From Dipteris shenzhenensis (lineage: Eukaryota): a stretch of 64,000 nt of DNA. This document shows positions 3,480-54,431 of the stretch, piece after piece; position 1 is the stretch's first letter, and every line of letters starts with the position of its first letter. The stretch lies in the NCBI GenBank assembly GCA_047967505.1, contig CM106538.1; one strand, given 5' to 3'. The translations under genes were made by a program, and so were the position numbers. The notes beneath the pieces were generated by a model. The model was not told where the DNA came from, did no database searches, and saw nothing but the letters and a program-made list of their open reading frames with translations.

Positions 3480-4610
3480 CAACGTTAGCACGTAGCATTG
3501 CTAAGTGCTAATTGCTAGGTGCTAAGTGCTAAGTGCTAGGTGCTAAGTGGCAAGGGCACTAAGTGTTAGGTGCTAAGTGCTAAGCACTAGGTGCTAACCA
3601 CTAAGTGCTAAGTGCTGTGCTAAGTGCTAAGTGCTAGGTGCTAAGGGCTAAGGGTTGCTAAGTGCTAAGTATTAAGTTGCTAGCACTGCCAAGTACTAGC
3701 ATTGCTAAGTGCCATTTGCTAAGTGCCGTTTGCTAAGTGCTAATTGCTAAGCACTAGCATCGCTAAGTGCTAAATGCTATGTTCTAAGTGCTAATTCCTA
3801 GTGCTAAGTGCGGGCATTGCTAAGTGCTAAGTATTAAGTTGCTAGCACTGCCAAGTACTAGCATTGCTAAGTGCCATTTGCTAAGTGCCGTTTGCTAAGT
3901 GCTAATTGCTAAGCACTAGCATCGCTAAGTGCTAAATGCTATGTTCTAAGTGCTAATTCCTAGTGCTAAGTGCGGGCATTGCTAAGTGCTAAGTCCTAGC
4001 ATTGCTAAGTGCTAAGTCCTAATTGCCAAGTGCTAGCTTTGTGTAGTGCTAAGTGCTAAGCAATAGTATTGCTTAGTGCTAATAAGTGTTAAGCGCTAGC
4101 TGCTAGCATTACTAAGTGCTAAGTGCTAAGTTGCTAGGAGTGCTAATTGCTAAGTTCTAAGTTGCTATAATTGCTTTGTGCTGTATGGTAAAACTACCAT
4201 AAGTGTATGTCCTAAGTAATAGTATAGCATTGCTATGCTTAGTGCTAAGCTCTAAGTAATAGTATAGCATTGCTATGCTTAGTGCTAAGCGCTGAGTTGC
4301 TAGCAATGCAATTGCTAAGTTCTATGTTGCTATAAGTGCTAAGTGCTACACTGTAAGTTCTATGTTGCTAACAATGCCAATTGCTAAGTTCTACGTTGCT
4401 ATAGTGCTATGTGCTACGTGGTAGTTGCTATAAGTGCCATGTGCTAAGTGATAGTACATCACTACTATACTTAGTGTTGCACGCTATCCATAGCATTGTT
4501 AATTGCTATGTGTGAAGTAATAGTATAGCATTGTTATACTTAGTGCTATGCGCTATCCATAGTAGGGCTAATTGATAGTGTATCACTTCTAAAGTGGATA
4601 TGTGCTACAC
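3480..4610. repeat. Degenerate 7-bp (TGCTAAG)n satellite with higher-order 162-bp and 40-bp duplications
   Basis: Directly visible; ATTAAGTTGC at 3671/3833 and CGGGCATTG at 3811/3973 (162-bp period); 40-bp repeat at about 4212-4290. Confidence 0.92.
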
Positions 4611-4624
4611 ATAGAACTAGTAAT

Positions 4625-7600
4625 CGATAGTATAGAAGCTTGAGAGTGAGCACAAGGTAGAAACTGGAAGCTAGTAAGAGGGAGAGAGATAATTTGGACG
4701 AGGAAGAAGGGAGATGTGGATAGTCTGAAGACCTTGAGTATCCAAAGGATTAGGTTCCTTGTATTTTAGCCTTAATAAAGACTCTCTTGGGCTCCTTTAA
4801 ATAGAGCCAAAAGTTCCAACAAGTGAGATAAGGTACCCACTTGGCTATACAATATCCATAAACTTTTTTTAAATCCAAGACCACAAGTACAAGGGACAAG
4901 GTTGATGTGAACCTCTCCAAGAAACCCATGTGCCCATGTGTCTCATAATGTGAGAGTCATGTGACCATTTATTCATTCTTGTGAGTGTTACAACTTCATG
5001 GTTCTCAACACCCTCCCTCAATATAACATTGGTAATTACATTGGCTACAAGGAATCATGCTTCCTAGATTACAAAGATTAAGGATTTTGTTTCTTAGGTA
5101 TGTACTGGGGGTAGGATTTTTAAAAATGTGGTCTAAAGGAAATTTTCATATGATGGTAAGGTTGCCACCAGATTGTTTCCTCCTTCTTGCCATTACATTC
5201 CCATTATAGGTGACCCAATTCTCCACATTTGCAACATTTCTTCCTCCTGGGATATTTGATGTAGCACCTTGCCTCAGTATGTCCCTTCTTTTTGCAAAAA
5301 AAACATTTGATGACATTGGATTTAGAGTGCATTGCTTTTGTTACTTGCCTACTGATGTAGAAGTGCCATTTGATTTGAGTCTTATCTCCTCATTGAGGAG
5401 AGAAGAAATGGCACCCTCAAGTGTGGGATTAAAAACATTTTTCAATCTCATGACTAAGGTAGCATATGACTTACCCACATCTTTAAGGAGCACAACAATT
5501 GCATCCTCTTTTGCTATTTTAGCTTTTACAGATGCTAATTGCACCATAAGTTTCTTCATATTTGAAATGAAGGAAACAAGATCCCCTTGAGTGTACTCAT
5601 GACTAGAGAATTCAATGAAACATTTTTCAATCTCATGACTAAGGTAGCATATGACTTAGCCACATCTTTGAGGAGAAAAACAATTGCATCCTCTTCTGCT
5701 ATTTTAGCTTTTACAGATGCTAATTGCTCCCTTCATATTTGAAATGAAGAAAACAAGATCCCCTTGAGTGTAAACATTTTCAATCTCATGACTAAGGTAG
5801 CAGATGACCTAGCCACATCTTTAAGGAGAACAACAATTGCATCCTCTTCTACTATTTTAGCTTTTACAGATGCTAATTGCACCATAAGTCCCTTCATATT
5901 TGAAATGAAGGAAACAAGATCCCCTTGAGTGTTCTCATGACCTGAGAATTCAATATTTAGATCAGTTTGAGAGTTTTTTCCTTTTGCACCATAGATTCCA
6001 TCCCACTTGATTTTGGCTATGGCCAACTCATTGATGTGGTGGAGAAGGCTCTTATAAATGATAAGCATAATGATGGCTTGTGCCCTTTTGTGATCTTCAC
6101 CCTCATCCGGTTTTCTTGGTTCCAACATTTTTCCTTCATTTACATATGACCATAACCCCTTAAACATCAAGAGGTATTTAATTTGGGCTTGCCATGAATG
6201 GAAACCCTCTCCATTAAAGTTTTTGATCAAAAGATTTCTTTGGCCATCGAAAGGAGGTCTTATCGGCTTATGGATTGCTCGACAATGTCTATCCTTTTAC
6301 AACATTAATAGTGATATTTTCCCTCTTTCTTAGTAAAAAAAGTGCCAAAAAAACCTTTGAGAAAAAATGACTAAGGAAAAACGACAGGTGGAAGCTCTTC
6401 TTCAACCTTAGCTTATCAAGGTTTTGAGAGGAAACAGAGACAACTATGTCATGCATCCGTGAAGAATTTCCACACCGTGAAGCTCAGGGGGGTAACTATG
6501 TATAAACCCTCTATATCACATGTGTTCAAGCCCTATTTGTAAAATCCCTTATCTGTAAAACTTTTCTTAATAAATTGTACCCTTTTTTTATACAAATCTA
6601 TATTTTTTTCCCAAAATTACTTTAAATAATCCATTATGTAAATTATTTTTTGTAAAATTTAAGCATTTAAAATAACCTTATGTTGAGCTCATGTGATAGG
6701 GTTACATATGATGAGTGAACCCCCCCCTCCCCCCGAGCCGCGAGGCTTATAGAAACTAGACATTGGAGGTTCCATCAAAGGGTTTGAGACCCTTCTGAAA
6801 ATAATGGAATAGACCAAATCATAAATGGAGTCTCTACCTATGGATTCCAATACATGATGATTTGGTTCATCTGTTGTTTTTCTCTTTTAGAGGTCATTTT
6901 CACTATGCTACTATGCGATGAATTTTCTCTACTCCTTTGTGCATACTTCTACTCCTTCCTGGTCACAACTGAATTAACATTGATTAGAATTGGTGCTACC
7001 CTATTCTGCTTCATTGGTGGTTGCTGGTCATCGCTCCTATTGTAGTTGGCCGTTTCTTGCTCTGTTATGATGTTGCTTCTACTTTTGGCTTGTTGTTAGT
7101 GCTATAAGTCTCTTGCTCTATGCTTATCTGTTATTACACTAGATGTGCTAGCTTGCTAATAGCCTTTCCTCCACATTGCTTTGTTACTACTCTCAACTTT
7201 GCTTCCACTACTTTGTTGATTGCACCATTTCTTCATTTTCTTTGCACTTTGCTTCAAATGAGTTTCAAAGATGCTACTTCTTGCCTTTTGGAGCAACACT
7301 TCTATGCTTGCTAATGAAATAACTTTTGTTCCTTGCCTTGCTCTTTATCTACAACAATCCTTAGAGGAGCCAAGGAAACTTAGGAGCAATCGACGACTTG
7401 GAGTAGTTAGGTTCAATGAAGCAAAAAGACCAACTGCTAAGCGAAGTGACAAAGAACTTCAGTCAGGCTACAAGATAAAAAGATGGGATAGAAGGACCTA
7501 TAGAAGTCTCTGACACCATGTTAGATTTTTAGCTTGAGAGTGAGCACAAGGTGGAAATTGGAAGCTAGTAATAGAGAGACATCAGGTGGACAAGGGAGAA

Positions 7601-9755: not shown

Positions 9756-10109
9756 TGACAAAATATGAAGAGGGGAGAGAAGAGTGGAGATGAGGAGAGA
9801 GGGTACAGCTAGAGAGCACACTACAAATGACTAACTGTACACTAGATTTAGTTGAAAAAATAGAATGTATACAAGCCCATTTAGGGTTAGGGCTAGGGAT
9901 CTAACTCTTTCCTTTATAGCACTCTATAAGGTTAGTGCTATGCACATATGATCACGTGATGGTGCTATGCACACATGATCACATGATGTTGAGCTTGAAC
10001 TCTCAACACCTTCCCTCAAGATCAACATCATGAAGTAGGCCTTCCCTCAAGATGATGATTCTGGGAATCGAAGAAGGATTGAGCATTACATTCCATCACA
10101 CCACTTTAA

Positions 10110-13100
10110 TGGGAATGTACTTCCTCTGCGTTAAACTAAGAGCTAGTCAGTGTTTCTTGAATAGCTCTTTATCGAATGGTTTGGTAAAGATGTCTGCAAC
10201 ATTCTCTTTGCTATCACAATGTTGCAGTGTGATGTCACCAAGTAACACTCTTTCTCTGATGAAGTGCTCTCTCACATCAATGTGCTTTGTCTTGTAGTAA
10301 TATACTGGATTCTTGGCCAATGCTTGAGCCGATTGATTATCACTGTATATTGTTGGCTTTGACTCATCAAAGTAATCTATTTTTGACAATAGTCTTCTGA
10401 GCCATATAGCCTCACATGCACCTGTAGTGAGTGCTCTATATTTTGCTTCAGTCGAAGACAAAGAAACATTTGGATGTTTGTTTGACAACCATGATATAGC
10501 ACCTTGACCAAGGAAAAATGCATATCCCTGTGTCGCGATCTCCTAGTCTCATGATCTCTGGCATAGTCACTGTCACAGTATCCCATGCAACCGTGGATGA
10601 CTTCCTCTGTATTCTATCCCAAACTGTCTTGTACCTCTGATGTATCTCAAGACTCTTTTGGCTGCATTCCAGTGAGACTGTTTTGGATTTGTTTACTAGT
10701 GAGCTTACTGCATAACAAATATCTGGCCGTGTGATTGTCAGATATATAAGAGATCTGATGAGTTGCCTGTAGTATCTGTCATTGATTGTAGGCTTTTCTA
10801 AATCTTTAGTAAGTTTCAAGCTCTATTCCATGGGAGTGGCTGCAATCTTGCAATCTGCCATATGAAACTTCTTCAGGAGACTATCAACATACTTGAGCTG
10901 ACTCATGAATGTGCTATCTGAATATCTCCAGAACTCAATTCCAAGGTAGTAGTGCATAAGTCCAAGATCTTTCATGTCAAACTCTATAGATAAGTCTTGT
11001 TTCAATTTTTTGATGAAGCTTTCCTTGCTTCTTGTCACAATCAAATCATCTATGTACAAAAGTGCAATAGTAATGTCTTCCCCTTGAACTTTATAGTAGA
11101 GAGTATGATCTGCATTGGATTTCATGTATCCCAGATTAGCAAAATACTTATCAATTCTGCTGTACCAACTTTTGGGTGCTTGCTTTAAGCCATAGAGACT
11201 CTTGTTGAGATGGCAAACCTTATTCTCCTTTCCTGGTTCAACATAACCTGCTGGTTGTTGCATGTAGACTTCCTTAGCTAGATAACCATTGAGAAATGCA
11301 TTCTTGACATCAAGCTGATACATATTCCATCTGTTGAGTGTCACTAGTGATATCAAGAACAGTATGGAATCCATTTTTGCTACTGGAGCTAAGTCTCATC
11401 ATAATCTTGACCATATTGTTGTGCAAATCCTTTTGCAACTAGTTTGGCTTTGTATCACTGTATACTGCCATCTGGATTGTACTTCACTTTGTATACCCAT
11501 TTGTTTGCTATGGCCTTCTTTCCTGCTGGAAGGTCGCATAATTCCCAAGTATTATTCTTATACAAAGCATCCATTTCTTCATTCATAGTAGTTTGCCATT
11601 TTGGCTTGTCTACTACGTCTTTGAAGTACATTGGCTCTTCTGTAACCATGATGGTAGTCATAAGAGCATAGTTGGTGGTTTCCACCTGAATTGCTTCGCC
11701 TTTCTGAGCATATGTCAATCTAGTTGGAGGTCTGCTTTCCCTAGTAGACCATCTGAGCTGCTGTGGCTTTGCTTGGGGTGTTGCTGGAAATGCTTGCTCT
11801 TCTTCATCAACCTGTTCTGTAAATGACTGTGAAATTGATAGTTCTATCTCCTGTGTAGGTGAGGTTTTCCATTCTGATTCCTCATTAAAGATTACATCTC
11901 TGGAGATAATGACTTTGCACTTGATGGGATCATATAATTTTTATGCTTTTCTTTCTTCACTGTAGCCAACCATGATGCATTTGCGTGACTTCACATCCAA
12001 TTTCCTGCGATGATCATCATGTATGTGGGCATATGCTATGCAGCCAAATATGTAGAGATGCCCAATGTGTGGCTTGTGTCTAGTGAATGCTTCATAAGGA
12101 TTCATACCCTGTATTGGTTTGGTAGGAAGCCAATTAAGCAAATAGTTTGTAGTGGCTATTGCTTCTGCCCAATACTGATTCGAAAGATGCTTTTCACTAA
12201 GCATTGCTCTAGCACTGTTTGCTAAAGTCCCATTCTTCCTTTCAGCTCTTGCATTCTACTGACAAGTATCTGCACATGTGAATTGTCTTCAAATGCCGTG
12301 ACTTCTGCAAAAGTTCATGAATGCTGAAGACATGTCTTCACCTCCTCTATTTGATCTCATGACCTTGATCTTTCTACCTATCTGGTTTTCTACCATGGCT
12401 TTGAATTCTTGAAATCTAGAAAACACTTCAGATTTCTCTTTCAAAAAGTAGACCCAACAATATCTACTGTAGTCGTCGATGAAAGTCAAGTAGTAAAGTG
12501 AACCATTGATGCTGCGAATCTGGGCATAACCCCATACATCTATATGTATCAAATCAAGAATACCTTGTGCACAAGAGGTACTTCTGACAAAGTTGGCTTG
12601 CTTTTGTTTGCCGAAGCAGCATGTTTTGCAAACTTTTCCAAGAAAGTGTAGCTTTGGAATCCCAATTGCCATATTCTGATTCCTGAGATCTAACAAGTAC
12701 CTGAAGTTGACATGACCATATCTCTTGTGCCATTTTGCAGATAGTGGCATCTGTTGCGGTTGAGCTGATATGGCATGCTTATATGGTACTGTAGCTAGCA
12801 TTTTGTATAAGCGTCCTTCCTTGACACCTTTTGCTACTAGCTGACATCTTTTGGATTTGTCTCTGATAGTGCATTCATCACCGTTGAAGGTGACTCGATA
12901 ATTGTGTTCGGTCATTTGACCTACTGACAAGAGGTTCTTGCTGAGCTTCGGAACATAGAGCACATCTTTCACCAATCCTTTCATACCGGTGAAATTATTC
13001 ATAGGGATAACAGCTATCCCTTGAATTGGATTCGGTGTATTGTCTACTGTGTAGATGACATTTTTTTGACCTTCTAATGGTTTCATTTTTGTGAACCATT

Positions 13101-14020
13101 CCTGATGATTTGTCATGTGAGATGATGCACCGTTGTCGATGTACCAAGGATCCTGTTCCACTTGGTCGATTTGATAGTTGAAATCCTCTTTGGGATTGTA
13201 ATCAGTGTTTGGATACACTATATCAGTCTAATGCATTTCCTCGCTTGTAAGAAACATATTCCCATGTTCATTTGCAAAATGACTATGACTAGAATGTCCA
13301 CCACGATGATTTCCTCTGCCTCGAGAATTCCCTCGATTTTTGCTGGATTGACCGCCTTGGTCGTACTGCTTCTTGCGGCAATCTCTTTCATAGTGTGTAA
13401 ACTTATGACAGTAGTTACATTGGATGTTTGACACATTGGTGGATGCATTCCCTCATCCTTGAAATCTTCCTCGGTTGGAATGATTTCCTCTTTGCTGATT
13501 TTGATGCTACTGGGGATAATGCTGATGCTGATGCTGATGATGACCACTTATCTGGTATGATCTACCTCTACCTTCTCTGCTTCTATTTGAAGCTGTGAGT
13601 GCCTGATCATTAGAATTACCTTTGCGTGCTTGGATGGCCTAATTCCTTAGTTCTTCACTAAGTAGGAGTGACTGAAGTTCTTCCAATGTCAAAATTTGCC
13701 ATTGAATGGTAATACTTTGAACTAGATTCTCGTATCCCTCTCCTAGTCCATTCAGAACGACTTGAACCATTTCTACAGGGTTCATAGTCTCTCCTGCTGC
13801 TACAAGTTGATTGTTGTAGTCTTTTATGCCGAGTACATAAGCATGACTAGTTTCGCTGCTGTTGTGAAAACTCTAGTTGATCTGGTTTCTCAGGGTGAGA
13901 ATCCTAGATGTGTTCTTGGACTCGTAGAGAGCTGCGAACATATCCCATGCTTCTTTCGATGTCTTGATTGTGTTGAGCTATCCTAGCATGACATCTTGCA
14001 ATTCTGCTTGATCAGATGTC
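10110..14020 (-). pseudogene. gag-pol: Copia gag-pol (gag, zinc knuckle, protease, integrase, RT, RNaseH) with stops and frameshifts
   Basis: CNYCHKFTHYERDC, WYIDNGASSHMT, YYLTFIDDYSRYCWVY, QLDVKNAFLNG, LYIDDL, KTKHIDVREHF in Copia domain order. Confidence 0.95.
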
Positions 14021-14769
14021 ATGAAAATCTCTGTATGAATCAACTGCAAATACAGTGACTATGCCAAGTAAAATCTCTCAACCATCGGTGAAGATAAAAC
14101 TACAATATATAAAATCTCTTATCTATATTACAAGGCTTGTGGCAATGATACTGGGAATAGCCAAGAGGCTTTACAAGGCTGAAATGATGTGCACAATGCT
14201 ATAAGATAGCTGAATAGGCTTTACAATGGTGGCATGTGTGTGTGAAATCAAGTGCTATCTACCCATTGAAACAATCTACAATGCCTCTATACTCTCTGAA
14301 GTTTGCTCACTAAACTGATGAACGTAAGGTTTCAGGTAATGTAATGATGTGAAACCGTATGTGAGTGTATGGACTGACTCCGAGTAGATACTAGTCGAGA
14401 ATTTTAGGCATGGCTTATATTGGCAACTTGGGGAAATTCAAAGCGTCCCCTCTATGGCGATCTAGTCTACTCTGATCTAGATCTATACCAACTATCAAGT
14501 GATGAAAGAACAACAAATAATTCCTTTTCTTTGTTCTTTTTAAGTGCAGGGTCAGATGCATCAATGTAGAGGCGAATGTGCATGAAGGAAATGGTTTTGT
14601 CAATGGCAAGGCTCAAATGTGAGTGTAACTTGCACCAAAATGTGCGTGTGATGTGACAAGCGTGTAGAGCATGAAAAAATGGGCGACTTTCCTTTTTGGA
14701 GCGCCCTAAAATTCTTCCTGGATCAAGAGATACGACTTGATCTAGGTGGAGGGGCAAAAAAGGAGTTGT

Positions 14770-15145
14770 CACTGTGGGTCACATGCAGTGATGATGTGGC
14801 ACTGTGCCAAGCAAGAGATGTGCCAGTGGAGCCCTGTGCTGAGGTGGTAGGAGTGGTCACATGAAGTGACTGTGGAGCACTGTATGTGCCTGTAGAGGTC
14901 AGTGTTGACTGAACAGCTAAGGTGGCACTATTGATGATGTCAGCAAATGATGTGGCAATGATGACATGGCAAATTATGTGGCATTGATGACATGGCATTA
15001 ATGATGTGGCATAGGTGATGTGGCTATGCTGACATGACAGTTGGTGATGACGTTGTAGATAAGGTGATGTGGCAAGCGCGAGAGACTACTGACATGGCAC
15101 TCATAATTGACGTGGCAGATAAGGAGATAAGGCCACGTGTCACAA
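14770..15145 (-). repeat. Array of TGCCAC(G/A)TCA-type motifs in the B leader (Hex/ABRE-like); second copy at 33340-33830
   Basis: Many TGATGTGGCA / TGACATGGCA / TGACGTGGCA units. Confidence 0.8.
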
Positions 15146-16035
15146 GGAGAGATAACAGAATCTATGGAGATTCTATCAAAATCACGTAGATTCTGTCGTG
15201 ATTGAGAATTCTATCGATATTTGTTAAGGTGAGTCGATTGAGAATTCCGTCGGTGAGCTTGGAGCTCTTGCAGATTCGTTGGTGCTAGATCATAGAGGAG
15301 CCGATATGAAAGCTGTTGCATTGTCTAGAGCACGGTGTAGGAGCCGCTTCCCTGGCATGGATTACTTTGGAGGCCCGTGGCTATGGGTGTCAATTTCATT
15401 GGAGGCTCGAGTCATTGGAAAAACTCTCTCCCTTGAGAGCTCTCTCTCTCTTAAAAGAGATAGGATAGTTCAATTCTATTTCTCTCAATGAAGAAGAATG
15501 AAATCAAAACAAAACAATACTCTCACTCTCTTTCTGTAACATAAATCTCTCAAAGAAGAAATGAAAAAAACAGAATTCTCAAATGAATTGGATGGAAATC
15601 TCTCATGAAATCTCTCTCCCCATAGATGGAAATTCTTCTGAATGAGAAGGAAATTTCTCTCTTTCAATGAATAGAAATTCTTCACTCAACAGAAGTGAAC
15701 AGAATGAAAGACTACCTCTCAATCTCACACTCTCAAGGATCGCAATGCCTCAGCGGAAGGCAAGGGAGCTCCGATACCATGACAAAATATGAAGAGGGGA
15801 GAGGAGAAGAGTGGAGATGAGGAGAGAGGGCACAGCTAGAAAGCACACCACAAATGACTAACTATACACTAGATTTAGTTGAAAAAATAAAATATATACA
15901 AACCCATTTAGGGTTAGGGTTAGGGATCTAACCCTTTCCTTTATAGCACTCTATAAGGTTAGTGCTATGCACATATGATCACATGATGGTGCTATGCACA
16001 CATGATCACATGATGTTGAGCATGAACTCTCAACA

Positions 16036-16963
16036 TTGGAATGTGGACTTTTTCCTTCTGTCTTCGTAGTGACAATGTATTGAGCTCCTAGTTTTACTTG
16101 ACTCTTGCTTGCCAAAGCCAAAATCTGCCCAATAAGAAATTGTATTCCGGGACTAGGCACCTTCATGTTGACTACCACAAATGAGACTAAACAAAATCCT
16201 TGCAACCTCCATCACTATGGCTTTAAGGATTCCCAGTGGCCTCACTGCCATTGATCAAAGCTATCCACACCAGAAATGGTGTTGGCTCCCATTTAGTCCA
16301 TCACATCTCCTGACAAGTCTTCAAGCTTACGCTATTGATCCCCGACACCCATCAATCAGCACTTGTGGACTTAACTTTCTTGAGATGATATATGCATATC
16401 AATGAGTGGAACTGCTAGAACTGGGCTTGATGCGGCTTGAAAACCATCCACCTCTGGGACTGCAGTGTGACCCGTCAAGGGATCAGTTGCTTGTGGAATT
16501 ATGGCATTAGTTTTAACAATCACCTGAGGGAAATTTGGATTGGCATGCCCAGGAGGTATTCAACTACTATGGACTCATCAGATCTTGTGGCTACCTTCAA
16601 CAAATTCTCTATCACATCTAGTACATGGCTTGGTGCTAGTCTTACAGTGACCTACACAGGTTAGGATCCTTTCCCAACCTGTAGTGGCACTTCTACTACC
16701 TTAAACCGTGGCACTTTCACAAACTGCACCTTGTGGATTGTATCTGCCACTAATTAGGGAACTGAAACTTCCTTTAGTGGGTTTGCCTCCTTGACTTAGT
16801 CCACCACATGTCGTCACATTGCATTTTGCATTGGCAGTTGTAGTAGTGCAGTCATCCTTATGGGTGAGCCCCGTAGCACTTTGCTAGATTGGGTCATGAT
16901 GTTAATTTTGGGTGTGACTTCTGGATCATCATCCACGATCTAGACCATCAATGTGCTGGACAC
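16036..16963 (-). mobile_element. Gypsy element E, gag/protease junction piece
   Basis: Lies between the B1 TSD and the D1 insertion; reads on into 20664 (NECPAH junction). Confidence 0.6.
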
Positions 16964-17979
16964 TATTAGTCGGAAAAGAAATCAGGACCAGAGGCTAGAG
17001 GCTAAGCATGGCGACGCTCGAGGCCATAGAGGAAAGGAGAACATGAGGGCGAAACATTATCATGGGAGGGGAAAAGGAATTAGAAGGGGAGGGAATGAAG
17101 AGGGAGACTATGACACAAGGGGAAAGGGAGAGGGGGAAGAGAAGCATGTACATGATGGGAGGAGGAATGTAAAGATCAAGACATCAAAGGAAGAGGACCA
17201 TGCTTTATTTTGAAAGGAAGAGAAGGGAGAAATCAAAGAACTAGCTAGGTGGCTTTACAAGAATGAGAGCGTCTCATCAAGGCATAGCCCCCTCCTTTTA
17301 TAGCCAAGAGAGGGCTCTCTCCCAATAAATGCATCCTCCCACATGTATGCACATGTATGGTGTGTGTGGAAAAGTCTCCCATGTGGGCTAGGCAGTTACG
17401 CACTCTCAATTGTGTGCGACAACCCTTTGCCTCATTTTTCCACATAAATCAAGCCCCATATCTCAAGTCTATGATATTCCCTTGGTCTCTCCCAATTTTA
17501 TAATATGTTCAAACCTCTAGGAGGACAAGTGGAGGGTTGGCACAAGGAATCTTGCCACCTCATCCTACTTTTTCCATTATTTAACTTGCATCCTTGGACT
17601 ATCTATACCTCCCCCACATGGGCCTATCCTATATGGAGGGAATAACCCAATATAATATCCATCTCCACCTATTTTATATTACTTCTCCCATGGACTTTGA
17701 GCCATATCTCACTAAATGCAGCCTAGGTAGAGGGGTGGCACATGGAGGAGCCATGCCACCTTACATTTTATAATATTACTACCATGGATTATGTACATCA
17801 TACCTTATGGGTCCTCTTACGTGGAAGGGTGGCACATGGTCATGCCTTGCCACCTCAACCCTGGGCCCTATGCACACCATATTTTATTATACTATTGCCA
17901 CACATACAAACACACACATATTAATGCCTTTTTCCTTAGACAAATTCTTGAGAATATACACGGATCCAAGATGTCATCA

Positions 17980-19674: not shown

Positions 19675-20663
19675 TTTCTATCAGCCGGAAAAAAAATCAG
19701 GACCAGAGGCTAGAGGCTAAGCATGGTGACGCTCGAGGGCCATAGAGGAAAGGAGAACGTGAGGGCGAAATGTTATCATGAGAGGGGAAAAGGAACTAGA
19801 AGGGGAGGGAATGAAGAGGAAGACTATGACACAAGGGGAAAGGGAGAGGGGGAAGAGAAGCATGTACATGATGAGAGGAGGATTGTAATGATCGAGACAT
19901 CAAGGGAAGAGGACCATGCTTTATTTTGAAAGGAAGAGAAGGGAGAAATCAAAGTACTAGCTAGGTGGCTTTACAAGAATGAGCACGTCTCATCAAGGAA
20001 TAGCCCCCTCCTTTTATAGCCAAGAGAGGGCTCTCTCCCAATAAATGCATCCTCCCACATGTATGGTGTGTGTGGAAAAGTCTCCCATGTGGGCTAGGCG
20101 GTTACGCACTCTCAATTGTGTGCGACAACCCTTTGCCTTATTTTTCCACATAAATCAAGCCCCATATCTCAAGTCTATGATACTCCCTTGGTCTCTCCCA
20201 ATTTTATAATATGTTCAAACCTCTAGGAGGACAAGTGGAGGGTTGGCACAAGGAATCTTGCCACCTTATCCTACTTTTTCCATTATTTAACTTGCATCCT
20301 TGGACTATCTATACCTCCCCCACATGGGCCTATCCTATATGGAGGGAATAACCCAATATAATATCCATCTCCACCTATTTTATATTACTTCTCCCATGGA
20401 CTTTGAGCCATATCTCACTAAATGTAGCCTAGGTGGAGGGGTGGCACATGGAGGAGCCATGCCACCTTACATTTTATAATATTATTACCATGAATTATGT
20501 ACATCACACCTTATGGGTCCTCTTACGTGGAAGGGTGGCACATGGTCATGCCCTGCTACCTGAACCCTGGGCCCTATGCACACCATATTTTATTATACTA
20601 TTGCCACACATACAAACACACACATATTAATGCCTTTTTCCTTAGACAAATTTATCCGTAATA

Positions 20664-21056
20664 GCACTCATTCTTAGCCTCTAGGCAGTCATTCTACCAA
20701 TCACCCTGTTCCAGTAGAACAACCAATTCTTCGGTTGATTTCCACCATGACCACTACCTCCTCATCTACGGCCATGGCCTCCTCCGCTACCACCTCTGGA
20801 ATAAGAGTGGTCCTAGGGGTCCATATTCCCAGATTGCTATGCATAGGAGGCTTCTAGATTGGTAGATGTGGGGGTTGTCCCTTGGATATACCCTTGCAAT
20901 TTTAGACCTCATCCATTGTAGTGACATTGGTATGTGGTGTGCATATTGGTCATACAGATGGCACACCACTTCTCATTTAAAGCACATTCTGTCATTGAGT
21001 GGCTAGAATTCCAATAGTAAATGCACTAGAGTTCCATTCTTCCTCTACCTGCCCTC
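20664..21056 (-). mobile_element. gag: Gypsy element E gag piece with Cys/His knuckles
   Basis: SHSMTECALNEKWCAICMTNMHTTYQCHYN; interrupted by D1 and C. Confidence 0.65.
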
Positions 21057-23664
21057 TGACAAAACATGTGTGCCTCAGGATCTATGGAGCACTCTAATGA
21101 TGGAACCTATGTGGAGACATGATGAAGAGAGTGCTCATGACATGTACCTCAAGTCAATTAGGTTCCAAGATAGATTAGCTTGGACTCATAAAGAGAATCT
21201 TGAGATAGTGTAAAGTGCTTGATTGATATTACTTCAAATGAACCTCCCTTTTATAGGTGAGGGTACTTACATCCATATGCTTGCTCACATGTGGGATATC
21301 TCCTCCATGCCATGTGGCAGCTTGCCCACATGTGCTCATGGCACCACAACTCTCAACACCTCCCCTTGGTGCCATGATCCTTTGGCTACTGCAAGGTGGT
21401 CAGATGTGAGTTACAAGATCAAATCCTCCCCTGGGTGCTTACATAGCTACTCTAAGGTGGTCAGGTTTGATTTACAAAATTAGGCAAGGTTGGCAAGGTA
21501 TTTGTTTCTCAATACATTCCATTGATGTCACCTTTTGGCTCATGGCTTGATGATGATGCTGTGTAGTTGACCTGTTGGTTCTTCAATCTGCAATCTTCTT
21601 CCTTATGTAGCTTCATGCATGATGCTTTATTCTTCCATGTGCCTTGATGCTTTATGTGTGGATGCCATGCTTCATGCTATGGTCATCTCATACACTTGCG
21701 CTTTTGGCATGCTTATGACAACGATGTGTGCATTCATGCTTTGCTTTTCCATTTGTTGCAAAGGTCTTACCAATTGATTTCTTTCAATGTTGGCAGTGTC
21801 TAATTGCATACAATGATTTTGACTTGATAAGCACGTAGATCTTGAAAAGACAATCACTTTTCCTTTTTGGAGTGTGTGCAAATTCTTCTTAGATTGCAAG
21901 TTATGGCTTGTCAAAGTTTCTGTGAAGAAGAGGGCCTTTGATGATGTGGCACAGGGATTCACATGCTGAATTCCATACTGTGCTTAGCAAGGGACTCTAT
22001 GCTTAGGTGGCACTATGCCATGTGGCAATCTTTAAACCCAAATAGGTTAACCCATGGTTACATTGGCTTTACCATGGTCCACCTAAATTGAACCTAACTA
22101 TAGACTTAACCACAGTTGAACTTAACCACACACACCCAACCTTATCTACCACGTGGCCTTTTTTAAGGAACCTTGGAGATTTGAAGGTTTGTTGTGTAGG
22201 GAAGGTCGACGACAGACGAGTGGCTTCAACGGAGGGAGCTCGAGGATGGCGGGTGGAGGTGTGGCTAGGAGAGATTCATCTCGCGAGCTTGGCTTCTCTG
22301 CGCAGCTACGTCCTTGAACAACAAGTTTGCATGAAGGGATTCTTCGGAGATATCGCTACTGCTCATGAGCGCGCCACCATGGTCTCTGGCAAAGCTCTCG
22401 GGAACTTTTGAACTGTTGTAGCTTTCACCGCCGAGGAGGAAGTGGTTGAGCTCTTCGCTCACGAACTTGCCGTGGAAGATTAGCTTGTGTGTCGACGTTG
22501 CAATGGAGAGAGTCGTTTGCTGTTTGCTTCGGTCGCCGGAGTCGCCACGTTTGGAGACAGAGGAGAGTTGTTGCCTTCTGCGTCAAGTCGCCTTGTCTGC
22601 TGGTTGAAGGGCTTTTCAGAGGCTGTAGCATGGGCGTTGCATTGGTGATGGCTTTCTAAAGTCGGACGTCGACTAGAGAGGTCAAGCAGACTTACACAGA
22701 GAGTCCGTCCCATCGATGCTCGGATGATCCAGTCAAAGCCCGTGGGCTACCAGATGCGCTTTTGGTAGAGCTCTTTGTAGAGGTCGGTGGAAGAAGCTTG
22801 CTAGCTGCGCTGTAAGCTAGAGATGGTGTTGCAAAGGCCGACTGAAGGACATCAGTCGTGCTTGAGGGCTGGAGCACTTGAAGGCTCTGGTTGTGTGGAA
22901 GGTAGTTGAAGATTTGGAAGCTGGAGCTAGCCCATGTGCATGGAGCTGCCAAGAGATATTATAGGAGGTCGGTTCAGTAGAGGCTGTGTTGAGCACGTCA
23001 ATGGAGAGCCATCTATGGAGGCACTTGATAGCTTGCTCTTGGAGATGGGGAGCTACAGAGTTTGTTGCTCATTGGAAGGAGCACTGTCTTGCTTGTCGAA
23101 AGGAGCGCTATCACTCAGACTGAAATCTCTCACCTCTCTTTAACAAAAGAAACACTCTCAAACTCTCTTGGAACACCTCTCTATCTCTCTCTCTCAGCAC
23201 AAAGAGTGAACTCTCACAAAACAATTGAACGGAAATCTTCAACTCTCATGGATGGAATTCTTTCAATCTAAAAACTAAAACTAACCTAAGAGAAAAAACA
23301 TGACCTCCTAAGACATGCCTACAACTAATCTAGGAGACTAGACCTAGGCTCTGATACCATGACAAAACATGCGTGCCTCAGGATCTATGGAGCACTCTAA
23401 GGTGGATGGAACCTATGTGGAGACATGATGAAGAGAGTGCTCATGACATGTACCTCAAGTCAATTAGGTTCCAAGATAGATTAGCTTGGACTCATAAAGA
23501 GAATCTTGAGATAGTGCAAAGTGCTTGATTGATATTACTTCAAATGAACCTCCCTTTTATAGGTGAGGGTACTTACATCCATATGCTTGCTCACATGTGG
23601 GATATCTCCTCCATGCCATGTGGCAGCTTGCCCACATGTGCTCATGGCACCACAACTCTCAACA
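21057..23664 (-). mobile_element. Young non-autonomous LTR element C (2.6 kb, no gag/pol) carrying host-gene fragments
   Basis: LTRs 21057-21358 and 23360-23664 nearly identical; TSD CCCTC at 21052-21056 and 23665-23669; perfect PBS TGGTATCAGAGC 23348-23359; PPT 21359-21368. Confidence 0.96.
22304..22475 (+). pseudogene. Captured ABCB/P-glycoprotein transporter fragment (transmembrane domain, likely TMD2), antisense to element C
   Basis: SYVLEQQVCMKGFFGDIATAHERATMVSGKALGNF*TVVAFTAEEEVVELFAHELAV follows the plant ABCB pattern KGF.GD...AH..A...AGE...NIRTVAAF.AE......F..EL; the stop TGA sits at the Arg (CGA) of IRT. Confidence 0.85.
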
Positions 23665-24420
23665 CCCTCTAGACACCACATAGCTCCCTTTTCCTCCTTT
23701 ACAAAACTATCATCCAAGCTCTCATCATTGGACTCTCCGTTGTTGGCTCTATGCTTTTTCCCCAATGGTTTCTTTTTGGATTTGATTTTTCCTTTTAATG
23801 TCTTGCGATGCTTGGTTATTTGACGTTGAAGCATGCCTCCCCCACATGGATCACTTGCACAACCACATCTTTAGGTGCATTTGCACTTTGTGCACAATCA
23901 CCACCATTGTCTGTACATCCTTGTCCAGTCTGGCAATAAAGTACTCATTGAGAACTTTCATCTTGCGAGTTGTTGTGCTTGAGGAATGCGTTGTAGGAGT
24001 TGATGGAACTGAGCCACATAATCTTTGATATCTTGATTGCCCTACTCCAGGATTCGCAATCCTTCTAGAGTTTGTGGAATTGTCTTCTCTTCACAAAACT
24101 GCCTCAGGAATGTGACCCTGAGAGCATCGTAGGTTGTGAAGTGATCTGCAGGGACTCTGCTAGCCATCTTGATGCTGTCCTCTCCACAATAGACTAAATA
24201 GTGCTTCCTTCTATGTGGCGTCCACAACACTTGGCATGTTGAGTGTGTAGATCTTGTTGAACTATTGAATATGTGTGTCACATGTCCAAATCACATCTTT
24301 GGATTTCCCCAAAATTTGGTATACTTGACATTCACTGCCCCGTTGTTGGAACCATAATGATCGAGACAATTGGAACTGGTCTACCTCCTACTATTGGTGA
24401 TTGAGGTGTTGTGATTGGAC
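23665..24420 (-). mobile_element. gag: Gypsy element E, N-terminal gag piece
   Basis: ORF 24042-24281 FTTYDALRVTFLRQF (retrotransposon gag-like); follows the C TSD. Confidence 0.6.
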
Positions 24421-31450: not shown

Positions 31451-31504
31451 GGTCTATTGCTTCAATATTTTGCAACATAGATATATTTATTTAATCACAC
31501 ACAC

Positions 31505-31813
31505 TATTATGGATAAATTTGTCTAAGGAAAAAGGCATTAATATGTGCATGTGTTTGTATGTGTGGCAATAGTATAATAAAATATGGTGTGCATAGGGCC
31601 CAGGGTTGAGGTGGCAGGGCATGACCATGTGCCACCCTTCCACGTAAGAGGACCCATAAGGTGTGATCCATGGTAGTAATATTATAAAATGTAAGGTGGC
31701 ATGGCTCCTCCATGTGCCACCCCTCCACCTAGGCTGCATTTAGTGAGATATGGCTCAAAGTCCATGGGAGAAGTAATATAAAATAGGTGGAGAGGGATAT
31801 TATATTGGGTTAT
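31505..31813 (+). mobile_element. Partial family D LTR interrupted by Copia B2
   Basis: Starts TATTATGGATAAATTTGTC as at 53433; breaks at the B LTR start. Confidence 0.93.
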
Positions 31814-34317
31814 TGTTGAGAGTTCACGCTCAACATCATGTGATCATGTGTGCATAGCACCGTCACCTGATCATATGTGCATAGCACTAACCTTATAGAG
31901 TGCTATAAAGGAAAGGGTTAGATCCCCTAACCCTAACCCTAAAAGGGTTTGTATATATTCTATTTTTTCAACTAATTCTAGTGTACAGTTAGTCATTTGT
32001 GGTGTGCTCTCTAGTTGTGCCCTCTCTCCTCATCTCCACTCTTCTCCTCTCCCCTCTTCATATTTTGTCATGGTATCAGAGCTCCCTTGTCTTCCGCTGA
32101 GACATTGAGATTCTTGAGAGTGTGAGATTGAGAGATTGAGAGGTAGTCTTTCATTCCATTCACTTCCGTTGAGTGAAGGATTTCCGTTCATTGAAAGAGA
32201 GAAATTTCCTTCTCATTGAGAAGAATTTCCGTCTATGGAGAGAGAGATTATTGAGTTCTTTGAGAGAGTTTCCGTTGAATTCTACTCATGTTCCATTCTG
32301 TTACGAGAGTTCATGCCTTGAGAAGTTTCTGTTTCGAGAGAGAGAAACCTTGAGTGTTTTCTGAGTTTGTAAGGTTCTTTGTGATTCAATCTCCTGTGTG
32401 AGAGAGGTTCCTGCACCTTCTACTACTCTAGCTGCAAGGCTCCTAAGCACTCCCACAGCGTGCTTCTCCTCCACAAGCCTCTAAAGCTCCAGTCGTCAAC
32501 TATGGGTAGGCTGAGACAACTCTCCAACTATGACTCGGCACAACTTCTATAAGGCAAACGACTTGATATTCTACGCAGCGTCAAGCACCTATGCAACCTC
32601 TCCAACGAGCAGCCCGGCTACTACAACAGCTCCCACCTACAACCAACGCAAGACACAAGTGACTGCCAGTGCAACGAGCAATCTTCTCCATCAACAAGCC
32701 CTGGCCTCGCCCAGTCAGCTCACAACAAGGCGGCTTCAATGTGCTCCGTAGGCACCAATCTCTGCAACTGTAGGCGACTCTGGCCATAGCTGCAAACAAA
32801 ACCGATGCTCCATCTGGATGTTACTCTCCATACATAGCCACAGACTTCAGATGGGCTCCCGAACAGCAAAGCTGCCTCCAACCAGCACAACAGCGAGCTT
32901 GCATTTGCAACTGGCCGCAGCGACTTCTCCTTCAATCAACAGCTACCCTCATAGCTTTTAGAACACGGACATCGATTGTCATAGCCAGAGCTCCTCGACG
33001 ATCAGCGCCATCTCCGACGACCGACGGCCTCTCGAGACTAGCAGCGCCAGCAACATCTATGGAGATGGAGCTTGAAGAGTGGTAGCAGCAACGGCTACAC
33101 ACACACAACGGGTGGCTCACGACGGCGCACTCAACTGCGGCTCCTGAGGCGGCGCATCCACTCCAAAGACAACGCCCGCACCCACGCCTTAGCCTACACG
33201 ATCAGCTAGCAGTCACAAAACTCACCAGCGAGTGCCTCCAACGAACGGCCTTCTCAACAAACCATCGGAGAAGATGACGGAATCTCCAAGATTCTGTCAG
33301 AATCTTGGATAGATTCTGGTGCCTCGCGTTCCGACACATGGCAGATAGAGTTTTGCCACATGGCAACCTTATCTCCAATTACCACATCATCAGGCACCCG
33401 GATGTGCCACGTGTAGTTGTCCTATCCACACTGCCACATTAGCATTAACACATCAGCAATCCATGTCATCAGGCCATGTCATCATCGACTGCCACATCAT
33501 CACCGATTGCCACGTCATCACCGATTGCCATGTCACTTGACACGTCATCAGTGACACATCATCAGCCACATCACCTGCCATATCATCAGTGACATGTCAT
33601 CAGCCACATCACTGTGCCACGTCACCTTGCTGACATCATCTGTGCCACCTCAGCAGTCCAGTCAACACTGACCCTCTGCAGGCACAGTCCCTTGCCAGGC
33701 ACACTGTGCACACACTGCATGTGCACACTCCTGCCACCTCAGCACAGAGCTTCACTGGCACACCTCTTGCTAAGCACAGTGCCACATCATCACGGCATGT
33801 GACTCACAGTGACACATCATCATTGAGCACCATTTGCACTCCTTTTGCCCCTCCACCTAGATCAAGTCATATCTCTTGATCCAGGAAGAATTTGAGGGTG
33901 CTCCAAAAAGGAAAGTCGCTCGTTTTTCGTGCTCTACGCACTCGTTACATCACGCGCACATTTTGGCGCAAGTTACACTCACATTTGTGCCTCGCCGACA
34001 AAACCACTTCCTTCATGCACATTTGCCTCTACATCAACGTATCTGACCCAGCACTTAAAAAGAACAAAAGAAAAGGAATTATTTGCTGCTCTTTCATCGA
34101 TCGACGGTTGGTTTAGATCTAGATCAGAGTAGACTAGATCACCATAGAGGGGACGCTTTGAATTCCCCAAGTTGCCAATCTAAGCCATGAAATTCCTGAC
34201 TAGTACCATACGCTCACATCCGATTTCACATCATTACATTACCTGAAACCCTACGTTCATCAGTTCAGTGAGCAGACTTCAGAGTACAGAGGCATTGCAG
34301 ATTGGGTCAGTGGGCAG
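31814..34317 (+). mobile_element. Copia B2: 5' LTR, PBS and leader with variable cassette; truncated before gag
   Basis: LTR 31814-32070; PBS TGGTATCAGAGC 32071-32082; about 33340-34317 homologous to B1 14270-15150. Confidence 0.95.
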
Positions 34318-35794
34318 TGTCCAAGTGGTGACTTATTTTATGACTTTCAAATATCCTTTCTTTTCCTTTCATCATTAGCTGAATCATGGAATTTTGAGCA
34401 AAGATCCTCTTTATAGCTCCTCAGGATGAGCTAAGAAAAATATATAACAGCTTTTTAATAGACCCTCTAAGTGTATTTTGCTAGAGGAATATGGTTTGAA
34501 TAGCTTGCCCCAAACCTATTGTGCTAGCCACAATACCCTTGGAGAGTCTACAAAGAAGGGGTCATAACTTTTGCTCCTTAGCTCGGACTGAGGAGCTGTA
34601 AAAAGGAACAATGTTCAAAATTTCATGATCTATGCAATGGAAGGCTTAAAGTCATAATTTTTATAGGTATAAAAAAGATAAGTTGGAAATTTTAAGATGT
34701 ATATAAGAGTTACAACTTCTGCCTAATTCATATTATGGTAGGAAGGAGTTCAAGAGGGACCACATTTCCTTAAAAATACTCAGGTTTGGAGAATTGGGAA
34801 TACTTTGAAAATCCCTCCATTTCCTTCCCATATTTGATAATGTATTATAGATTATTCTATGGTCTTTTTCTAACTCATCCAAGGAATATGGTATATAGTG
34901 TTACATGAGAGCTTCTCAATACTTCAAATATGGGATTGCTAAAGCTAAGGGAAACTCTTTTAAATAGATTGAATTACCATAATCCTCAAAAGAGAGTATG
35001 GTAGGGAGGGATTTATAGGAGTTTATAAAGTGTTCACTATTTGTTCATACATAGTTGATGTTCTCTAAAATGAGGGTTATAATGATAATAAGTAAATATA
35101 TGGTTCCATAAATCATAAAGAATTGTATATTCCTTTGAGATATATACTAGCATGGTCGGTGTAAAAAATTTTCTGCTTGTAGGTTTTTGGTCAGAAATTG
35201 TGCTCCTCCAGGCAATTCAATGCAATAACCATCTAAAAGCAATATAAGATATATGGTATGTAGATTCAAAACACGGGTTTTCTTTTCATTGCATAACAAC
35301 TTGAAAAACACAAAAAACAGAGGAAAAGAGATCAAAGAAGAGGAAAAAAGTATCAACCTTGAAGCCTCACCATAATGCCATCATACAAAGTTCCTTGTCC
35401 TAAAAAATCCACCCCTATTCCTATCCCTTTGTTGCATTTACATGTATACCCCAACCCTTCCAAGCTCCTAGCCTCTTTAACATTATAGAAAAGGACTATT
35501 ACAATTGAGAGGACTAGAGATCTGGATTAGGTGAATTGAAATTGGAGAGTGGGATCAAAGAATTAATTTGTGCATCAAGAGAAGATATGATTGACTCCTT
35601 GACACTAAAAAAATAAAGGGAAGTGAAATCAAATTGTTCTTTCTTAGCCAAATCTTTTTCTTTATTGTTTTTGGGAAAAACTCATTTTATAATGAGAAGG
35701 CTAAAGTGAGAAATGTAATCATAAAAAGTGAGGAGAGGGCAAGGAAAGGAAAGGTCCTTGTACTCGAGAAATTTTACATGAGGAGTCTATAGCT

Positions 35795-52400: not shown

Positions 52401-54431
52401 GCTGACCTTGTTCAAGGATGTCACTATGCATTGCAAAACTTATGAACCATGCCAATTCTTTGGTAGGAAGGATTTATGTCCTAGGAAACATCACCCAGTG
52501 ATGTCCATCCATCTGTTTCAGAAGTGGGGAATAGATTTTGTCGGGCCCCTGCCCATGACTGCCCGCAAAAAGAAGTATCTTTTGGTAGCCACTCAGTATG
52601 TCACTAAGTGGGCTGAAGCTATCGCCCTCCCCTCAGCAAATGGTAAGGTAGTTTCAAATTTCATATTTGAACGTATCTGCACAAGGTTTGGGACACCCAT
52701 GATAGTATCTGACAATGGGAGTCCATTCTAAAATGAAGCAATGAAGTTACTCATGGGTCGCATGGGTATTGATCATCGCACTTCTAGCATCTATTATCCA
52801 GCATCCATGGGTCAAACAGAGCGGACCAATGGCCTCCTTTGTAAAACATGGGAAAAATGGCTACAAGGAATAGGAGCTAGTGGGATCAGAAGGTCACAGA
52901 AGCCGTATGGGCTTACAACATCACTCATAAAACGTATACATGTCACACTCCTTTTGAGTTGGTGTATGGTACTGAGGTCATCTTACCACTAGAGATAGAG
53001 ATTCCGACTTTGATATTGGCACAAGAACAGAGGATGACAGAAGATGAACATGTAGAGGCCCAGTTGTCGCAACTTGAGAAGCTAGATGAAACCCGATGCC
53101 TTGCCCTACATCAAACAGAGATTCAAAAGAATCAACAAAAGGCCCACTTGGATGCTAAGATTCGCAAGGGATGGGAAAGATAATTTGCTGAGGGGGATGT
53201 TGTGCTATGCTTTGATAACAGATTGGACCACCAAATGGATAAGAAGTTCCTTCCATTGTGGACCGGTCCATACAAAGTCATCAAGGAACGTAGAAATGGA
53301 TCTGTACAAGTTCGGGAGCTGCATGAGCCATATGGCAAGAAGGTGGTCAACAAGTGTTGCCTTAAGCCCTTCTTTGTGCATGATGGACTGAGGAATGGAA
53401 ATGCTATGCATTCCCTACCTGGGGGGGGGATCTATTATGGATAAATTTGTCTAAGGAAAAAGGCATAGATATGTGTGTGTGTTTGTATGTGTGGCAATAA
53501 TATAATAAAATATGGTGTGCATAGGGCCTAGGGTTGAGGTGGTAGGGCATGACCATGTGACACCCTTCCATGTAAGAGGACCCATAAGGTGTGTTGTACA
53601 TAATCCATGGTAGTAATAATATAAAATGATAAGGTGGCATGGGTCCTTCATGCACCACCCCTCCACCTAGGTGGTTCCACGCCTACATTTAGTGAGATAT
53701 GGCCCAAGGACCATGGGAGAAGTAATATAAAATAGGTGGAGATGGATATTATATTGGATTATTCCCTCCCTGTAGGATAGGCCCATGTGGAAGGGGTGTA
53801 GAAAGTCCAAGAATGCAAGTTAAATAATGGGAAAGTAGGATGAGGTGGCAAGATTCCTTGTGCCAACCCTCCACTTGTCCTCCTAGATGTTTGAACATAT
53901 TATAAAATTGGGAAGAGACCAAGGGAGTATCTTAAACTTGGGATATGGGGGTTGATGTATGTGGAAAAATGAGGCAAAGGATTGTCGCACACAATTGAGA
54001 GTGCGTAACTGCCTAGCCCACATGGGACACTCTTCCACACACACCATGCTTGTGGGAGGATGCATTTATTGGGAGAGACCCCCTCTCTTGGCTATAAAAG
54101 GAGGGGGCTATTCCTTGATGGAACACGCTCATTCTTGTAAAGCCACCTAGCTAGTACTTTGATTTCCCGCTTCCCTTCCTTTTAAATAAAGCATGGCCCT
54201 CTTCCCTTGATGTCTCCATCTTTACATTCCTCCCCCCATCATGTACATGCTTCTCTTCCCCCTCTCCCTTTCCCCTTGTGCCATAGTCTCCCTCTTCATT
54301 CCCTCCCCTTCTAATCCCCTTTCCCCTCCCATGATAATGTTTCGCCCTCACGTTCTCCTTTCCTCTATGGCCCTTGAGTGTCGCCATGCTTAGTGTCTAG
54401 CCTCTTGTCCTGATTTCTTTTCTAGGTAATA

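Follow-up and report, generated by a model that had tools for sequence, protein, structure and literature searches.

What fills the variable block in the leaders of a family of Ty1/copia retrotransposons, and by which process does it come to differ from copy to copy? The question is raised by a 64,000-nucleotide stretch of DNA from Dipteris shenzhenensis (assembly GCA_047967505.1, contig CM106538.1), here called the window, in which an earlier note made from the sequence alone had described a 'slot' filled with antisense snippets of host genes. The leaders of four related copies were compared, all of them situated in this single window: B1, B2 and B3 of the autonomous family B, and C, a 2.6-kb non-autonomous element. 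We put about even confidence in the reading that the slot is a mosaic passenger region which aberrant template switching, together with recombination, rebuilds and into which foreign sequence is occasionally taken up. According to this reading the slot would be a passenger segment in a roughly 2-kb untranslated leader, it would lie between two repeat blocks that the copies have in common, and its content would change by the swapping of whole segments rather than through rapid point mutations. The comparison is based on the following features.

31814 to 32070, plus strand: 5' long terminal repeat (LTR) of B2, 99% identical to 62411-62667
32071 to 32082, plus strand: primer-binding site (PBS) of B2, TGGTATCAGAGC; this 12-mer is also found directly after the LTRs of B3 and C
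32083 to 32404, plus strand: GA/T-rich repeat block of B2 (GAGAGA...TTTCCRTTCATT units)
32405 to 33250, plus strand: variable C-rich block (slot) of B2; composition A.27, C.34, G.20, T.18; observed/expected ratio (o/e) of CpG 0.76
33255 to 33290, plus strand: border motif of B2, CAACAAACCATC...AATCTCCAAG, common to C 22172-22195, degenerate in B1
33300 to 33850, plus strand: GCCACRTCA repeat block of B2; periods 12-18; CpG o/e 0.37; TpG+CpA o/e 2.1
33851 to 34317, plus strand: conserved 3' leader of B2; 80% identity to B1 15025-14259; covered by contigs of public runs
9756 to 16035, minus strand: B1, a complete autonomous copia element; target-site duplication (TSD) TCCAA on both sides; slot at 15200-15440
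62411 to 62667, plus strand: LTR of B3, followed by its PBS at 62668-62679
63160 to 64000, plus strand: variable block of B3, which continues beyond the window end
21057 to 23664, minus strand: element C; LTRs 21057-21358 and 23360-23664, PBS 23348-23359, polypurine tract (PPT) 21359-21367
22196 to 23110, minus strand: variable block of C, unlike the other slots

The leaders of B1, B2 and C show the same order of parts, i.e. PBS, GA/T-rich repeats, a C-rich and GC-rich block, a border motif and GCCACRTCA repeats, and the B3 leader shows the first three of these (PBS, GA/T-rich repeats, C-rich block) before the window ends. The layout described in the earlier note is borne out to this extent, its block coordinates were right to within tens of bases, and the conserved 3' border motif CAACAAACC(A/T)TC...AATCTCCAAG that it had reported for B2 (33255-33290) and C (22172-22195) is present, along with a degenerate form in B1. 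The GCCACRTCA motif occurs 13 times against an expectation of 0.92, and all of the copies (13 out of 13) are found on the element strand of three leaders, in arrays at 33300-33850, 14780-15199 and 21942-21950. Ten out of the 13 copies have CA in place of CG; the reverse complement of the G form is TGACGTGGC, which we take to be a bZIP-type (Hex/ABRE-like) promoter motif. Directly past the border motif B2 contains a perfect 9-bp stem at 33288-33312 (CCAAGATTC - TGTCA - GAATCTTGG), and B1 has a 7-bp palindrome in its place. These structures could be a signal in the leader RNA.

The evidence for an exchange of whole segments comes from the comparison of the copies. B1 and B2 are 92-94% identical in the LTR, 88% in the first ~175 nt of the leader, 73% at the border and 80% over the 803 nt of the 3' leader, and no alignable sequence was found between these conserved stretches. 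The unalignable zone consists of the slot plus most of the GA/T-rich block, since only the first ~100-180 nt of the B2 GA/T-rich block align to B1. B2 and B3 are 99% identical in the LTR, but only 73% identical over a 79-nt stretch that runs from the PBS ~65 nt into the leader. The slot of C shows no similarity to the slots of B1, B2 and B3. A single island is common to two of the slots.

32826 to 33055 and 63543 to 63795, plus strand: island common to the slots of B2 and B3; 223 aligned pairs with 83.9% identity

The differences within this island are distributed over the three phases as 14/10/12, they comprise 26 transitions and 10 transversions, and the indels are 29, 1, 1, 2 and 4 nt long. 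Since the phases are even and the indels break the frame, the island drifts neutrally, about as fast as the conserved leader. In other words, the 'hypervariable' character of the slot reflects the replacement of segments and not fast substitution. The claim that the block is different in each copy is therefore correct for most of its length, which is unalignable, but not for the island. The near-identity that had been ascribed to the B LTRs applies to B2 and B3 only; the two LTRs of B1 (16035-15780 and 10008-9756, with TG...CA ends) are 94.6% identical to each other and 92-95% identical to those of B2 or B3. Likewise, the slot does diverge faster than its frame in the sense that a segment is replaced between conserved flanks, but the GA/T-rich block is equally unalignable.

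The slots also stand out by their base composition. All four are alike on the element strand (A.25-.30, C.30-.34, G.18-.20, T.18-.23). CpG o/e is 0.58-1.04 in the slot sub-blocks of B1, B2 and B3 and in most of the C slot, where only the PBS-side third (22801-23110) is as low as 0.39. Outside the slots the ratio is 0-0.19 in the LTRs and 0.35-0.37 in the adjoining GCCACRTCA blocks, in which TpG+CpA is doubled. Because CpG is barely depleted in the slots in comparison to the depleted flanks, the slot DNA has probably spent a shorter time in the element lineage than the flanks, and by the same contrast it looks foreign to the element. Along C the ratio passes from 0-0.11 in the LTR and the 3' leader (21057-22171) to 0.88-1.27 in the border, a core of coding sequence and the next 300 nt (22172-22800), and this shift, at ~22172, falls within a few tens of bases.

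The coding sequence in question is a fragment of an ABCB gene that lies within the slot of C.

22247 to 22501, plus strand (antisense to C): ABCB19-like coding fragment; core 22316-22480; the HMMER alignment extends to 22564

C is a complete non-autonomous LTR element and a relative of family B. It is 2,608 bp long, has LTRs of 302-305 bp that are 98% identical, and is flanked by the TSD CCCTC (21052-21056 and 23665-23669). Its 2 kb of internal sequence contain no gag, pol or other retroelement domain according to Pfam, and what C and B have in common is restricted to the tips of the LTRs, the PBS, the leader layout and a CTATAAA motif that resembles a TATA box. A terminal-repeat retrotransposon in miniature has LTRs of ~100-250 bp and a total length under ~1 kb; C exceeds this size and the classification was rejected.

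The fragment aligns with residues 837-929 of ABCB19 and with ABCB1 in a search of the PDB (E 4.6e-11 with a 64-aa query, 1.9e-10 with the whole frame), so that an ABCB fragment on the strand opposite to the element, as proposed earlier, is confirmed. It contains two in-frame stops. HMMER found 33 matches at E<=0.001 among 1.84 billion representatives, with none at 1e-10 and identities of 30-56%, and all of the scanned proteins (11 out of 11 taken from these 33) were assigned to ABC_membrane by Pfam. When 33 ABC proteins were compared with the window using tblastn, 21 matched the fragment at E<=1.7e-7; the best match elsewhere had an E value of 0.042, the best in the other slots 0.5, i.e. the search detected no second ABCB piece in the window. 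An ABCB source for the other slots was rejected on the basis of this search and of nucleotide local alignments of the core with the slots (p 0.43-0.70), and the core is not duplicated inside C (p 0.20). A word-seeded protein search with the fragment gave 40 candidates, none of them significant, and no protein with enough common 5-residue words.

The core of ~55 codons is significant on its own, with 71.5 bits against 19.6+-2.2 in shuffled sequences (0 out of 100 shuffles reach its score), and its flanks are not significant (p 0.70 and 0.26). An origin from mRNA, as assumed in the earlier note, finds no support, given that only this exon-sized core is significant. Six short database proteins stop resembling the fragment just past one common point, which suggests that an exon ends there and that the core represents one exon. 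To judge by its sequence, C is an LTR element with a transduced host gene fragment.

The slot of B3 contains material of another kind, namely two short pieces of the element's own LTR.

63291 to 63308, plus strand: inverted 17-18-nt copy of the LTR 3' end in the B3 slot; none of 200 shuffles reaches 17 nt (maximum 13)
63467 to 63479, plus strand: direct 13-nt copy of LTR positions 62582-62594 in the B3 slot; p 0.015

Snippets of this kind are the patchwork that would be expected from strand and template switches. The likeliest process would be illegitimate template switching and recombination during reverse transcription, and the sequence patched in would comprise the exon-sized, reversed ABCB19-like piece in C, the own-LTR snippets in B3 and, elsewhere, CpG-rich sequence that matches no identified source. 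A growing plus strand that switches onto plus-sense element RNA would yield an inverted copy of the U5 end. The same switch onto a host mRNA would yield an antisense piece of a gene, to judge from one short match. Sabot and Schulman reportedly described in 2007 complex LTR insertions that are made by template switching. A nested transposon was rejected as the origin of the slot, as terminal inverted repeats were not found and the slot matches nothing else in the window.

The earlier note had further reported many LRR/NB-ARC-like pieces on the antisense strand of the slots. No such similarity was recovered: Pfam gave no match at E<=10 in any of the 24 slot frames (four slots in six frames), and a phmmer search of the PDB with nine antisense frames of B2, B3 and C retrieved ABCB only (1 out of 9 frames), the best of the other E values being 0.0083, 0.16 and 0.31. 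A separate Pfam scan of the window covered 117 out of 218 stop-free segments of at least 70 aa, including all 18 that overlap the four leader blocks. A word-seeded search of 5.8 billion protein clusters gave no match for an antisense frame of B2, compared with longer proteins, or for a sense frame of B3, compared with proteins of 183-583 aa. In the databases searched no host-gene fragment was found in the slots of B1, B2 and B3, and the ABCB piece is the only match to a host protein, an outcome that the note itself had named as speaking against its model. The proposed array of several host-gene segments in one orientation is thus reduced to one identified segment in four slots, and the statement that uptake is always antisense to a single piece (n=1), next to a B3 slot in which own-LTR snippets occur in both orientations.

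The open frames that had been described as coding-like are not distinctive either. Stop counts and longest open frames in the slots equal those of dinucleotide shuffles on both strands, the sole exception being the antisense strand of C with 31 stops against 43.4+-4.4 in shuffled sequences (p 0.006). Nevertheless, a coherent single three-base phase runs along the full slot of B2 (chi2 19.3, p 0.01) and of B3 (24.5, p<0.003), which is as strong as in the gag, integrase and reverse transcriptase controls (chi2 20-26). The phase is lacking in all of the non-coding controls (5 out of 5), in the GA/T-rich block, in the 3' leaders and in the B1 slot. Autocorrelation peaks are seen at lags 3 and 6. 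The phase may derive from decayed coding sequence or from a trinucleotide-like origin. Assigning a strand to the phase by amino-acid composition was dropped as a method, for it missed even the true ABCB frame.

Several observations weigh against a mosaic passenger region. About 80% of the slot sequence has no matched source, and CpG content and the codon-like phase are all that marks it as foreign; only four copies from one window were compared; and the ABCB piece gives conflicting signs of age, as it looks old by its identity (at most 56-59% to any protein) and its two stops, but young by the CpG o/e of its core (1.03). Moreover, random patching would not predict the same C-rich composition in all slots, which points to uptake in a consistent orientation or to some constraint that acts on the leader RNA, and a coherent phase over ~840 nt in B2 and B3 is poorly explained by a patchwork of small pieces.

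These observations give some room to other explanations. The slot might be an intrinsic spacer, i.e. the family's own C-rich, G-poor, low-complexity leader that changes through slippage and small duplications while its composition is constrained, with the ABCB piece as a one-off accident. We consider this unlikely, though it would account for much of what is seen: the same composition on the element strand of the four slots and of the adjoining GCCACRTCA block, the autocorrelation at lags 3 and 6, local duplications such as the 27-nt tandem copies at 63308-63361 and the 15-nt repeats in B2, a stop density equal to that of shuffles in every frame, and the lack of protein similarity besides ABCB. 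What it leaves unexplained is that Tandem Repeats Finder at score 30 detects nothing in the B2 or C slots, that the ABCB piece sits inside the block with the same composition, and that undepleted CpG beside strongly depleted flanks is hard to reconcile with sequence of the element's age. The coherent phase invites yet another explanation, which we regard as improbable: the slot could be a decayed extra open reading frame (ORF) on the sense strand upstream of gag, encoding a fast-evolving Ser/Thr/Pro-rich protein and intact only in active master copies. The frames with the fewest stops do tend to be sense (5 stops in 280 codons in B3 against 7 in the best antisense frame; a tie at 7 in 281 in B2), and additional ORFs are known in plant LTR elements (PMC7264820). 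On the other hand, every frame has at least 5 stops, which is the level of shuffles; the island common to B2 and B3 has frame-breaking indels and no third-position bias; the block of B1 is just 241 nt long and has no phase signal; the search among proteins of 183-583 aa yielded no relative and Pfam no match; and the ABCB piece in the C block is antisense.

The model of the earlier note, in which host mRNA fragments are repeatedly taken up at a dedicated leader site, always in antisense, and the transcripts serve as an antisense or small interfering RNA (siRNA) array or as a decoy, seems to us very improbable. It can draw on one antisense ABCB piece, on gene-like CpG content, on the deficit of stops on the antisense strand of C, and on the C-rich element strand of all slots, a counterpart to the prevalence of G at the first position of the codons in the ABCB piece (G1.45); for maize, captured fragments have been proposed to give rise to siRNA cross-talk (10.1101/777037). 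Against it stands that the one identified piece accounts for about 165-320 of about 2,840 nt over the four slots, that LRR or NB-ARC similarity is lacking in the frames searched (24 in Pfam, nine antisense in the PDB), that in B2 the antisense frame whose phase is gene-like (G1/T2) contains more stops than any other (19 in 281), and that B3 contains an LTR snippet in sense orientation. Extended perfect pairing with a target mRNA is doubtful, as the ABCB piece is so diverged from every protein found and no protein turned out to have enough 5-residue words in common with it. The potential for double-stranded RNA that had been suggested was not found: folding of the slot RNA is no better than that of shuffles (z +1.12 for B2 and +0.42), no hairpin was detected, the three leaders contain no inverted repeats, and the window contains no Rfam family. 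A related idea is that the leader interval from the GA/T-rich repeats to the border motif is a preferred landing site where reverse transcriptase copies plus-sense host mRNA or the element's own RNA into the plus strand, so that uptake would be systematically antisense and feed small-RNA cross-talk. This too we hold to be a very remote prospect; if it were true, the family would transcribe RNA complementary to host genes, for example to an ABCB19-type auxin transporter. An element-borne antisense array would matter for the conflict between transposons and their host, yet it is unsupported by the present evidence, as is a silencing function of the slot. We infer that the slot is neutral cargo rather than a device for silencing host genes.

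The mosaic passenger region that we favour has several relatives among known systems. Capture of gene fragments by plant LTR retrotransposons is established, usually as rare and scattered events, in Bs1, rice, sorghum and maize Sireviruses (PMC13317346, PMC7264820, bioRxiv 10.1101/777037). Like C, Bs1 of maize is an LTR element without full coding capacity that has pieces of cellular genes between its LTRs, one of them also from a membrane transporter-type gene, an H+-ATPase (PMC13317346, PMC7264820); in contrast to C, whose antisense piece is located in the untranslated leader, contains stops and forms no ORF, the segments of Bs1 are in sense orientation and form a hybrid ORF. The exon fragments of maize Sireviruses are likewise found in copia-type elements, and siRNA cross-talk to the donor genes was proposed for them. 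They occur in 3% of the elements and in either orientation without bias (Muyle et al., bioRxiv 10.1101/777037), and the part of that study drawn on here names no fixed site, whereas here one leader position is involved in four copies with one fragment identified.

Abnormal template switching that introduced new sequence and founded subfamilies has been described for Veju and BARE-2 (PMC13317346). As in the slot, unknown or foreign sequence entered a non-coding part during reverse transcription in the long Veju TRIMs and in BARE-2, but these are single events, whereas in the present family one and the same interval varies from copy to copy in all four. Antisense, coding-looking sequence of unknown origin is also found in Grande gene23, RIRE2 and Retand (PMC7264820); there it is located between pol and the 3' LTR and conserved as open, whereas the slot lies upstream of gag and is neither open nor conserved. 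A literature search that was non-exhaustive and excluded supplements surfaced no account of leaders in which non-element sequence, particular to each copy, occupies a fixed site. What the present copies add is CpG-undepleted, non-element-like sequence at one leader position in four related copies. If this were true genome-wide, the leader would contain a recombination-prone site and with it a natural record of template-switch errors, including switches between strands.

Sequences outside the assembly were also compared with the B2 leader. Ten public runs share 0.05-0.14 of the words of 31814-34500, and none of these runs is recorded as RNA. The contigs of four public runs (47, 88, 133 and 14 contigs; 80% likeness) cover the B2 LTR, the PBS and ~100 nt further, as well as 33344-34333. 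The bins 32264-33253 are uncovered by these four sets except for a 36-nt piece in run X3, a gap that proves nothing given the low coverage of the sets. One contig in one public run connects 32082 to 33288, i.e. the PBS to the border, with only 20 nt on its short side, and is a weak hint that other copies differ over exactly that interval. Exact-pattern scans for further copies gave no matches in metagenome contigs (two patterns) or in viral contigs.

B1 has an LTR pair, a 5-bp TSD, the domain order gag-protease-integrase-reverse transcriptase, a PBS and a PPT, and is thus a Ty1/copia element. Pfam places Retrotran_gag_2 at 13872-13642, Pol_BBD, gag_pre-integrs and rve at 13227-12292, SH3_retrovirus at 12255-11944 and RVT_2 at 11395-10826, all on the minus strand; the frame is broken many times. 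The PPT GAGGGAAGG lies ahead of 10008, and the PBS of B1, TGGTATCGGAGC at 15779-15768, has one mismatch to TGGTATCAGAGC. Both forms of the 12-mer presumably belong to the initiator tRNA-Met. The family B LTR is 257 bp long (TGTTGAGAG...TTTTGTCA) and is followed by the PBS. It contains a perfect telomere-like (CCCTAA)3 repeat, found by Tandem Repeats Finder and by alignment at 31925-31942, at 62525-62542 and also in the LTRs of B1.

B2 is inserted at position ~310 of a ~990-bp repeat unit, a partial copy of which occupies 31504-31813, and its similarity to B1 ends at 34317. Its interpretation as a full element was rejected: the pol sequence at 36.5-39 kb is only 40-52% identical to that of B1 at the protein level and so belongs to another element. 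Ahead of the B3 LTR come a PPT and 92 nt from the 3' end of the internal region of a B element (62319-62410; 93.7% identity to B1 10102-10009). This LTR is 99% identical to the B2 5' LTR 30.6 kb away, and the leader past its PBS is a different one. By its sequence context the B3 LTR is an LTR shared in a tandem or recombinant LTR-internal-LTR-internal arrangement, and therefore provides no clock for the B3 leader.

The window as a whole is made up of LTR retrotransposons nested in one another, with copia-type and gypsy-type Pfam domains throughout. Besides its partial copy the ~990-bp repeat unit has three full ones, at 16963-17946, 19678-20652 and 53444-54422, which are 90-96% identical. Near a remnant of a copia gag at 5736-6296 there are tandem repeats at 3655-3978, with two copies of 162 bp that are 100% identical, and at 5433-5954, with three copies of ~180 bp.

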